Source of the DNA: a virus | Taxonomy: Duplodnaviria; Heunggongvirae; Uroviricota; Caudoviricetes | IMG/VR virus record: IMGVR_UViG_2529292921_000023 | DNA length: 18,296 nucleotides | Reading direction: 5' to 3' (one strand) | Part shown: positions 4,048 through 5,167 of the stretch, piece by piece | Numbering within the stretch: position 1 is the first letter of the stretch | Layout of the letters: the number at the start of each line of letters is the position of its first letter | Program-made: the position numbers and the translations under genes | The notes under the pieces: generated by a model | Seen by the model: only the letters and a program-made list of their open reading frames with translations | What the model was told of the DNA's origin: nothing | Database searches by the model: none

Positions 4048-4084
4048 AAAAAAAACCACACGGCAGCGAGTTTAAGCTGTGTGG
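4048..4084 (-). terminator. Rho-independent terminator on the late (minus) strand
   Basis: Minus strand: GC-rich hairpin CCACACAGC-ttaaactc-GCTGCCGTGTGG followed by T8 (plus-strand A-run 4048-4055). Confidence 0.55.
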
Positions 4085-4175
4085 CGAAGTTACCTCTCTT
4101 CACCAAGTATTCGGTAATAAAATAACTTGTGGTGTTCTCGTTTTTATGCCGATAAAATAAACGGTCCACTTTCAA

Positions 4176-5108
4176 ATGGAGCGATTCATGATTTTTCTCA
4201 GAACTGAAAACGGCATCGAGAAACTTGAAAACTGGGAGGAAATTATATCCAGACCAAACTTTGTCACCACTATAGACAAAGGAGTTCAACAACTTGAGGA
4301 GATAATTGGTTACTACAAATTTAAAGAAGAAATCCACTGTGGTCTAACTGGTTGCAACCAACCACATCAAATGGGTTATATTGTAAAAACATCTAGTGGC
4401 ATTGAAACCAACATCGGAAATAAATGTGGTAAAAACGAATTTGGTGTGGAATTTGGTGAAAACGTTCTTAGTTTCAATAAATTTATGCAACTCGAAACCA
4501 ATCGGGAAATTATTAGCACCGCAAAAAGTAAATGTGAAGCGTGGCAAAAAAATATTGAAACGATACGAAATATCAAACCCACAATAGATTATCTATCTTC
4601 TACCATCGAAAATAGTAAAAATTCCAATTACTCCGGAAGACTTGGTGCTACAGAAATTCGTTTTTTGACCAAGAACCAGACAGGCCTTGTAACCCTTTCT
4701 GAAGTGGAAACTGATAAGAATACCAAAACAATTCTGTTCGCAATGAATGAACACATGCGCGAGTCTGGAGAGGCAATAAGTGAATTCTACATAGGAAAAG
4801 TATCATTTAGTCATGTTCTTTTACCAGAAAACAATCTTCGTGATTTTTTTGTTGCGCTCAAAGAAGATCTAAAAAAAATTCAGTGTATTGATCTACAAAC
4901 AGCCCCAAGCCCAGAAATTTCTAATGTTGCCAAAATTGCCAGTTCAATCGAAGAACGAATCAAGCGATTAAAAAAACTGAAACATGAAGCCAGTAAATTC
5001 CTAACTAAAAAAAATCTGCGTCCCATCGCAAACAAAATAAAATACTCATCGACAGCGGATGAACTTGAATTCCATAATTTCGAACGCTTTTTAAAAGGGC
5101 TGAAATGA
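4176..5108 (+). CDS. Orphan AT-rich hypothetical protein (310 aa), moron between Q and the lysis cassette; function unknown
   Basis: Long ORF on the strand opposite all flanking phage genes. GGAG 7 nt upstream of ATG. Visibly AT-rich, Lys/Glu/Asn/Ile-rich (GC not computed). Hairpin directly after the stop. Only motif noted is a Cys/His cluster (HCGLTGCNQPHQ ... KCGK). No family recognised by eye. Confidence 0.7.
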   Translation: MERFMIFLRTENGIEKLENWEEIISRPNFVTTIDKGVQQLEEIIGYYKFKEEIHCGLTGCNQPHQMGYIVKTSSGIETNIGNKCGKNEFGVEFGENVLSFNKFMQLETNREIISTAKSKCEAWQKNIETIRNIKPTIDYLSSTIENSKNSNYSGRLGATEIRFLTKNQTGLVTLSEVETDKNTKTILFAMNEHMRESGEAISEFYIGKVSFSHVLLPENNLRDFFVALKEDLKKIQCIDLQTAPSPEISNVAKIASSIEERIKRLKKLKHEASKFLTKKNLRPIANKIKYSSTADELEFHNFERFLKGLK

Positions 5109-5109
5109 T

Positions 5110-5131
5110 AAAAGCCCCGAAAGGGGCTTCT
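5110..5131. terminator. GNRA-tetraloop hairpin, candidate bidirectional terminator (tR'-like for the late strand, and terminator of the moron gene)
   Basis: AAAAGCCCC-GAAA-GGGGCTT. On the minus strand it is followed by TTTTATCATTT; on the plus strand by CTATCAAAATCATTT. Confidence 0.5.
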
Positions 5132-5167
5132 ATCAAAATCATTTACGCATTATTCCGCATGCTTAAA

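Follow-up and report, generated by a model that had tools for sequence, protein, structure and literature searches.

Lambdoid phages hold cargo such as stx, nmpC, and csp genes in the slot between the late antiterminator gene Q and the lysis genes (the Q-S slot), and an antisense orientation of such cargo is known from nmpC/lc. What, then, does a single gene do that lies in this slot on the strand opposite to everything around it? The question is raised by the virus record IMGVR_UViG_2529292921_000023 (Caudoviricetes), analyzed here as one stretch of 18,296 nucleotides (the window). The window represents a lambdoid prophage, with the genes for replication, Q, and lysis all on the minus strand. 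In the list of open reading frames (ORFs), the gap between Q (276 amino acids; 5223-6053, minus strand; Pfam Antiterm, E = 2.6e-52) and the holin gene, the first lysis gene (3508-3723, minus strand; class II, P21-type; Pfam Phage_holin_2_1, E = 1.4e-35), holds one long frame, 4176/4188-5108. It runs on the plus strand, convergent with its neighbor Q and opposite to the holin, lysozyme, and Rz genes, as an earlier reading of the bare letters (the sequence-only reading) had described. We favor, at a probability of roughly 45%, the answer that this cargo gene encodes a lysogen-expressed anti-phage defense or superinfection-exclusion factor, probably silenced by Q-driven antisense transcription. 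This is an interpretation of its context, its evolutionary pattern, one machine-learning prediction, and one unrelated precedent.

The sequence-only reading had placed the start of the gene at ATG 4176, giving 310 amino acids. That codon has no ribosome-binding site and stands four codons before ATG 4188, which is preceded at a distance of 6 nt by a Shine-Dalgarno GGAG (4178-4181, plus strand); GGAG or AGG is kept at equal distance from the ATG in homologues. RefSeq annotates identical copies as 306 amino acids long, the match to the PHROG profile begins at residue 5 of the 310-residue version, and all homologues start with MIF(L/I). Given the Shine-Dalgarno spacing, the RefSeq length, the profile start, and the shared N terminus, we set the gene at 4188-5108 (plus strand; 306 amino acids; TGA stop at 5106-5108; phrog_7003 family), and ATG 4188 rather than 4176 is almost certainly the true start. 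The GC content of the gene is 0.354, with 0.30 at third codon positions (GC3), compared to 0.48 to 0.54 in the flanking genes, which agrees with the drop in GC noticed earlier. Low GC is also found in the copies from Salmonella, Serratia, Pectobacterium, and Phytobacter. Comparison with the Salmonella orthologue (77% amino acid identity) gave 0.12 nonsynonymous substitutions per site (dN) and 1.20 synonymous substitutions per site (dS), a dN/dS ratio of 0.10. These results show that the cargo gene is real and under purifying selection.

The prediction of a defense function comes from DefensePredictor (DeWeirdt, Mahoney & Laub, Science 2026), which in its Table S10 assigns WP_032207072.1 a mean log-odds of 7.87 at a cut-off of 4. 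This protein, from E. coli strain 90-3040 and a member of cluster WP_001549653.1, is 85% identical to the window protein. A second cluster, WP_000576620.1, represents a divergent 314-amino-acid allele of the cargo gene and received a log-odds of 4.67. Both alleles are labeled "Predicted novel defense gene," and WP_032207072.1 is listed as being without homology to known defense proteins. The phage-exclusion guess made in the sequence-only reading is therefore echoed independently, by a machine-learning prediction. DS-40/D295, a validated DefensePredictor system of similar length, was considered as a relative and rejected, being an unrelated membrane protein.

The arrangement of signals around the gene is consistent with expression in the lysogen. 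Upstream, a −10-like hexamer, TAAAAT (4153..4158, plus strand), accompanied by a weak −35, would mark a promoter belonging to the gene itself. Of 19 homologous loci, which come from several genera, 11 carry TAAAAT or TATAAT 35 to 37 nt before the ATG, a 12th has TATAAT 48 nt upstream, and three others have TATGAT or TAGAAT in about that place. Around this conserved −10, the upstream sequence has otherwise diverged. Downstream, a hairpin (AAGCCCC-GAAA-GGGGCTT, 5112-5129, both strands) begins 4 nt after the TGA stop. It folds far more stably than shuffled sequence on the minus strand (z = −4.9) and on the plus strand (z = −3.9); on the minus strand it is followed by UUUUAUCAUUU, and the U-tract is the better one on this late strand. 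All loci examined, whatever their allele or Q type, have a hairpin after the stop, always with its T-run on the late strand.

Convergent with the gene, a pR′-like late promoter was found at 5170..5197 on the minus strand, with a −35 of TTGATT (5197-5192), an equivalent of the Q-binding region, and a −10 of TGTATT (5175-5170). The block TTGAyTTTG...TGTC.TGTA is kept in six loci, including those with the allele that is 25% identical. The window Q is 41% identical to the Q protein of phi80. In the phi80 record, the −35 and −10 of pR′ are annotated along with the Q-binding site and a terminator farther downstream. The window block aligns with the phi80 −35, Q site, and −10, and the hairpin at 5112-5129 aligns with the phi80 terminator. 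Because of this alignment, the hairpin is best read as the late terminator tR′, which would be shared by both convergent transcription units. The hairpin that the sequence-only reading had assigned to the end of the gene is thus real but not private, since it occupies the tR′ position. Between the cargo gene and the holin gene there is a second hairpin (CCACAC...GTGTGG, 4052-4086) with T8 after it on the late strand, exactly at the point where similarity to Stx2f prophages begins (~4049). Its folding (z = −0.6) is no better than that of shuffled sequence, and we list it as a candidate terminator only; in phi80, too, a second terminator is annotated immediately ahead of the holin gene.

We read the region as a self-contained moron cassette directly downstream of tR′, made up of a weak putative sigma-70 promoter, a Shine-Dalgarno sequence, the 306-amino-acid gene, and a terminator. 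Among the traits of a moron, a term whose definition reportedly goes back to Hendrix and Juhala, the cassette displays a deviating GC content, a terminator of its own (shared with tR′), and absence at related junctions. The proposal of a lysogen-expressed function had been part of the sequence-only reading, and the conserved −10 box, the terminator, and the low GC match the build of a lysogen-expressed moron.

From this layout, a mode of regulation can be proposed. In the lysogen, pR′ transcripts would stop at tR′, and the cargo gene would be transcribed from its own promoter, the cassette using tR′ in reverse as its terminator. Upon induction, Q-modified RNA polymerase would pass tR′ and cross the gene antisense toward the lysis genes (toward stx2f in Stx2f phages), such that late transcripts traverse the entire cargo gene before they reach the holin gene. 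This antisense read-through would probably lower expression of the cargo gene while the phage itself grows lytically. In layout, the nearest precedent is TaiEcA of phi80, a lysogen-expressed defense gene positioned antisense in a Q-controlled late operon (He et al. 2024, PMC11364771). The TaiEcA protein level falls on Q expression (PMC11364771). A more far-reaching proposal, that the family constitutes a new class of single-protein, nonenzymatic immunity built on a hitherto undescribed chromo-like barrel with a stabilizing zinc, with adjacency to Q as its mechanism of self-immunity, appears doubtful to us. If it held, the gene would be on in lysogeny and off once Q opens tR′, its placement beside Q would be no accident of recombination, and Stx2f phages would carry such an element in the path of stx2f transcription.

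We examined how the junction varies among E. coli genomes. Of 5,426 complete genomes, 41 carry the window Q. The window allele is present in 16 of those genomes, and about 22 have the 314-amino-acid allele, only 25% identical, in the same slot. In these ~22 genomes, Q codons 1 to 214, the first two-thirds of the gene, share ~98% DNA identity with the window and are followed by a different 3′ end of Q. The breakpoint lies at ~5410; beyond it, in two loci inspected, come a different pR′/tR′ leader and the 314-amino-acid allele. Judging from these alignments, the C terminus of Q, the promoter, and the cargo allele are passed on together as a single unit. Three Shiga toxin-producing E. coli genomes with a related Q (exemplified by 2012EL-2448, ~4001-4190 of the extracted locus) retain only the last ~70 nt of the gene together with the hairpin; in 2012EL-2448 this scar is followed by a methylase remnant, tRNAs, and a sialate esterase. 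The scar shows deletion or replacement of the gene and thus turnover of cargo at the junction. No gene is present at the corresponding junction of phi80 or BTP1. The cargo farther downstream varies as well, from nothing to stx2f with tRNAs, or a methylase with tRNAs, TerB, and a sialate esterase. Cargo swapping, which the sequence-only reading had suggested looking for at the Q-to-S junction of related prophages, is therefore evident in E. coli from the divergent allele, the scar, and the varied downstream cargo.

In Stx2f prophages (E. coli 2015C-4136CT1, 2417-5060 of the extracted locus, and six IMG/VR loci), the gene lies between Q/tR′ and stxA2f; therefore, the pR′ toxin transcript crosses it antisense. 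The 314-amino-acid allele also adjoins an stxA-like gene. The literature on Stx2f phages mentions only the 276-amino-acid Q and leaves the cargo gene undescribed. Several lineages have disrupted copies. A frameshift splits the gene into two ORFs in phi467 and three viral contigs, and five mouse-derived E. coli genomes (strain M8, 3640-4560 of the extracted locus, among them), as well as two IMG/VR loci, have a premature stop at codon 11 (E11*). For the E11* copies, RefSeq annotates a 245-amino-acid remainder without C51, C56, and H60. Because such disrupted copies recur across lineages, the gene is dispensable to the phage. Disruption of the frame, which had been named in advance as a sign against function, is thus found in some lineages (the E11* mouse-gut strains and the Stx2f-phage frameshift) and not in the window, where the copy is intact. 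With a dN/dS of 0.10, the disrupted copies fit cargo and are no sign of nonfunction here.

To which kind of protein does the gene give rise? A short cluster of Cys and His residues was the only motif noted in the sequence-only reading, and it is real: C51, C56, H60, and C80 are invariant in a conservation set of 59 homologues that are only ~20 to 30% identical to the window protein. Y43, G63, G77, and G81 are invariant across the same members. An AlphaFold2 model built from a 24-sequence alignment reached a predicted local distance difference test score (pLDDT) of 92.6 and a predicted template modeling score (pTM) of 0.78. The model comprises a beta-rich N-terminal domain (amino acids 1 to 86), a long helix (87 to 128), and a helical body with two short beta-hairpins. 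The conserved N-domain (amino acids 1 to 90; 4188..4457, plus strand), a small beta-barrel with a helix, contains all four Cys/His positions (codons at 4338-4340 for C51, 4353-4355 for C56, 4365-4367 for H60, and 4425-4427 for C80, plus strand). That these residues fall in one confidently modeled domain indicates a putative Cys3His metal (zinc) site. Conservation is concentrated here: mean pairwise identity is 49% in the core (amino acids 36 to 90) and ~20% in the remainder. The variable body (amino acids 91 to 306; 4458..5105, plus strand), formed by the remainder of helix 87-128, a helical bundle, and the two hairpins, includes a near-invariant N276-L277 in an FLxxxNL motif. The two parts differ in charge, with an acidic to neutral N-domain and a basic helical body (pI ~9).

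In the model, the N-domain resembles a small SH3/chromo-like barrel that the predicted zinc site would stabilize, a resemblance that we do not claim as homology. Solved SH3-like barrels matched it with marginal scores and 7 to 15% identity, and the matched domains (chromo and chromoshadow domains and SH3-like barrels, as in HP1, Chd1, Sso7d/affitin, and Tudor) lack the Cys3His site. The likeness describes a fold and is no evidence of homology or function. The full AlphaFold model had no convincing solved-fold match; Foldseek against BFVD returned nothing below an E value of 0.01, and PDB searches with the single sequence and with a profile yielded noise only. We found no catalytic motif, signal peptide, or transmembrane segment in the protein and, by Pfam on the protein and on isolated N-domains, no known DNA-binding motif. 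From its sequence, the protein is predicted to be cytoplasmic and without an enzymatic signature. The earlier statement that no toxin, nuclease, nucleotidyltransferase, or TIR signature can be recognized holds up, and no curated library gave a match. Under the defense interpretation, the protein would work by binding to a component of the phage or the host and not by catalysis; the conserved N-domain would be its constant module, and specificity would come from the variable helical body.

Contrary to its first description as an orphan, the gene belongs to a large family. The 310-residue translation matches phrog_7003, a family annotated "unknown function," over its full length (E = 1.7e-110; residues 5 to 310 against profile positions 1 to 309 of 309). 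The exact protein sequence of the window occurs on 197 contigs and is named "hypothetical protein" every time, and one Salmonella homologue sequence occurs on 756 contigs. Homologues of ~306 amino acids are found in Escherichia, Salmonella, Enterobacter, Citrobacter, Leclercia, Pectobacterium, Serratia, Yersinia, and Providencia. Among 1.84 billion cluster representatives, a profile search recovered 1,006 clusters (50% identity) at E ≤1e-3 and 172 at E ≤1e-30; the best 150 of the 1,006 are nearly all 280 to 340 amino acids long and matched over their full length. A second profile search, of a set of 5.8 billion proteins, mostly returned close relatives again. The family ranges across gamma- and betaproteobacteria, and scanning a single genome for each species brought in Proteus, Morganella, Gilliamella, Alteromonas, Thermomonas, Pseudomonas, Vreelandella, and several Burkholderiales. 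The window protein has no Pfam, NCBIfam, or PADLOC match; Pfam likewise gave none for the 59 diverse members or for eight isolated N-domains, and literature searches found no published description of the gene or family. phrog_7003 and the clusters WP_001549653.1 and WP_000576620.1 are catalogue entries without phenotype, structure, or mechanism. The family is large and, like its domain, uncharacterized, and the gene is not an orphan.

The association with Q extends well beyond the window. In 59 of the 79 IMG/VR loci with a called copy, a Q gene is convergent within the next two genes downstream, and the identity of these 59 copies to the window protein spans 24 to 100%; another seven IMG/VR loci lie near a cI-type repressor. 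The cargo gene adjoins three Q families (unrelated ones: Antiterm PF03589 and DUF1133/Phage_antitermQ) and several holin types. Klebsiella phage ST13-OXA48phi12.2 and Pseudomonas Hollowayvirus phages carry it in the immunity region (cI/cro), opposite to the flanking operon, and further phages also have it beside cI/cro. All-against-all clustering of neighbors in 28 genomic loci revealed no recurring neighbor gene family. An operon partner or a toxin-antitoxin module was rejected on this ground, and the gene therefore appears to work alone. In distant lineages, the neighbors are mostly housekeeping genes at island edges, along with resolvases, integrases, and occasional defense genes. In the prophage of the Salmonella enterica orthologue (three loci; 3102-4106 of the extracted locus), an integrase gene separates the lysis genes from the terminase/portal genes, an unusual position that may point to an inserted element.

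Several observations weigh against a defense function. PADLOC-DB 2.0.0 (5,027 models) contained no match to the protein at E ≤0.1, no effector domain can be recognized in it, and a motif search of the sequence table in the DefensePredictor paper found neither allele among the proteins assayed there. The association with defense islands is weak, since neighbors at distant loci are mostly housekeeping genes; what counts in favor of defense is that ~4 of the 28 nonprophage loci do have defense-type neighbors, namely AbiJ, RmrA, a type II methylase, and HsdR. The gene's own weak sigma-70 promoter is inferred from the conserved −10 only, and a generic promoter/terminator scan called neither this promoter nor the hairpin at 5112-5129. 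The TaiEcA protein stayed constant after mitomycin C (PMC11364771), and antisense silencing may for that reason be minor. Moreover, the place after Q/tR′ is kept across copies of 24 to 100% identity and across three Q families, and this also speaks for the main rival, control of late genes. According to that explanation, the protein, or transcription toward pR′, damps read-through at tR′ or antagonizes Q, stabilizing lysogeny and timing lysis and Stx2f release. The terminator common to pR′ and the cargo gene points the same way, as does the breakpoint at ~5410 in Q, beyond which the 3′ third of Q, pR′/tR′, and the allele move together. However, physical adjacency alone could explain the linkage to Q, homologues also reside beside cI/cro or in chromosomal islands without Q nearby, phages with nonsense or frameshifted copies persist, and lambda, phi80, and BTP1 manage without the gene. 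We therefore consider late-gene control unlikely.

A factor of lysogenic conversion, acting on host physiology or on the interaction with the animal host, for instance as a DNA- or RNA-binding regulator of chromosomal genes, would suit the moron architecture in the slot otherwise used by stx, nmpC, and csp genes, the proximity to stx2f in Stx2f prophages, the basic helical body, and the presence of the gene in enteric pathogens and commensals. It is nevertheless distinctly unlikely, because the carriage of the family by marine Alteromonas, Thermomonas, Burkholderiales, and soil Pseudomonas makes a shared animal-host function improbable, because neither a signal peptide or transmembrane segment nor a known DNA-binding motif was found in the protein, and because a single slot with such high allelic divergence is rather what one expects of conflict genes. 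Among the small accessory genes of temperate phages, many serve anti-defense, and inhibitor proteins commonly have no enzymatic motif, both of which would fit a counter-defense gene or lytic-cycle helper that aids the phage during infection. We rate such a role as very improbable, given that the gene runs antisense to the flanking operons in both the Q-S and the immunity-region slots, has a promoter-like element of its own, occurs at chromosomal loci without phage genes, and at 306 amino acids is large for an inhibitor. The existence of disrupted copies could finally suggest a chance or decaying frame without function; we give this virtually no credence, as it is refuted by the dN/dS ratio, the ~1,000 clusters of conserved length with invariant Cys and His residues, and the pLDDT of the model. 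Of these explanations, we retain a lysogen-expressed defense or exclusion factor as the preferred one.

The remainder of the window completes the picture of the prophage. Upstream of Q on the minus strand are genes for a helicase (7880-9538), a toprim primase (6910-7878), and, between primase and Q, a phrog_6204 protein of 285 amino acids with unknown function (6053-6910). The latter bears the RefSeq name HTH-domain-containing (helix-turn-helix), has a weak PADLOC match to PbeC (E = 0.0015), and is kept beside the window-type Q in many prophages. The holin gene is followed on the same strand by genes for lysozyme (3011-3508) and Rz (2547-3026). Two ORFs overlapping the cargo region, 3939-4337 (minus strand) and 5105-5347 (plus strand), had no family matches in Pfam, PHROG, PADLOC, or NCBIfam and are taken as spurious. 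A tRNA 3′-half remnant (T-arm, acceptor, and CCA: GCCGGTTCGATTCCGGCCGCCA) lies at 3842-3900 on the minus (late) strand, where related phages have intact tRNAs. It gave a partial, tmRNA-type (transfer-messenger RNA) Rfam match (E = 1.1e-5, below the gathering score); ARAGORN found no intact tRNA in the window, and Rfam gave subthreshold matches only. At the left end, an IS21-type (insertion sequence) IstB ATPase gene (504-1286, plus strand; Pfam IstB_IS21, E = 7.7e-112) and the ORF upstream of it (16-507, plus strand) adjoin a gene for a DUF1441 protein (1337-1729, minus strand), a place that holds terminase genes in related prophages; this end of the prophage may have been truncated or split by the insertion sequence. 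The integrase appears split into an ORF with the Arm-DNA-binding domain (17011-17391, plus strand; 126 amino acids) and a catalytic ORF (17424-18296, plus strand; 290 amino acids) in different frames, which suggests a frameshifted integrase and possibly a defective prophage.

If the gene does encode a defense factor, it would be a widespread addition to bacterial immunity, comprising ~1,000 clusters in two proteobacterial classes with no known domain or solved fold, although it is one among >1,000 predicted E. coli defense clusters. The layout would suit the study of how a prophage shields its own lytic growth from a defense gene, in that one hairpin would end both the constitutive pR′ transcript and the cargo gene, and read-through by Q would make the cargo gene an antisense target. 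Convergent transcription could also influence expression of the Stx2f toxin, left unexplained in published Stx2f work (PMC10673567).

How does the cassette compare with known systems? Its architecture is of a known kind, that of a Q-S slot moron and antisense defense candidate; the protein family and its domain are uncharacterized. TaiEcA shares the antisense placement in a Q-dependent late operon, a likeness of layout and not of ancestry: membership in the Tai family was rejected at an hhalign probability of 0.07% against TaiEcA (phi80 orf63). TaiEcA is a ~26-kDa protein encoded after the lysis genes and upstream of the packaging genes, whereas the window gene lies between pR′/tR′ and the holin gene; TaiEcA is paired with a counter-defense gene, atiEcA, and no partner was seen for the window gene in 28 loci. 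BstA of the Salmonella prophage BTP1 is a single prophage gene of ~307 amino acids with its own terminator (Owen et al. 2021, PMC8585504). Its two domains include a conserved one for binding at the N terminus, and it is distributed over alpha-, beta-, and gammaproteobacteria, with some homologues independent of prophages (PMC8585504). BstA and the window gene are alike in size, in being single prophage genes with a terminator, in their two-domain build, and in occupying accessory slots of temperate phages. A common family was again rejected (hhalign probability, 0.3%; BLASTP E = 0.73; no KilA-N Pfam match). BstA has a KilA-N-like domain and no zinc site and lies downstream of cI, whose promoter it shares, and its aba-like self-immunity element has no counterpart identified for the window gene.

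The classical Q-S morons (the nmpC/lc porin, cspB/F, and stx) have, like the window cassette, their own terminator and an odd GC content, lie between conserved genes of the late region, and are absent from sister phages; they also have their own promoter, for which the window cassette shows a candidate. Unlike them, the window cassette encodes a cytoplasmic, predicted zinc protein, and a single hairpin at tR′ would serve both transcription units.

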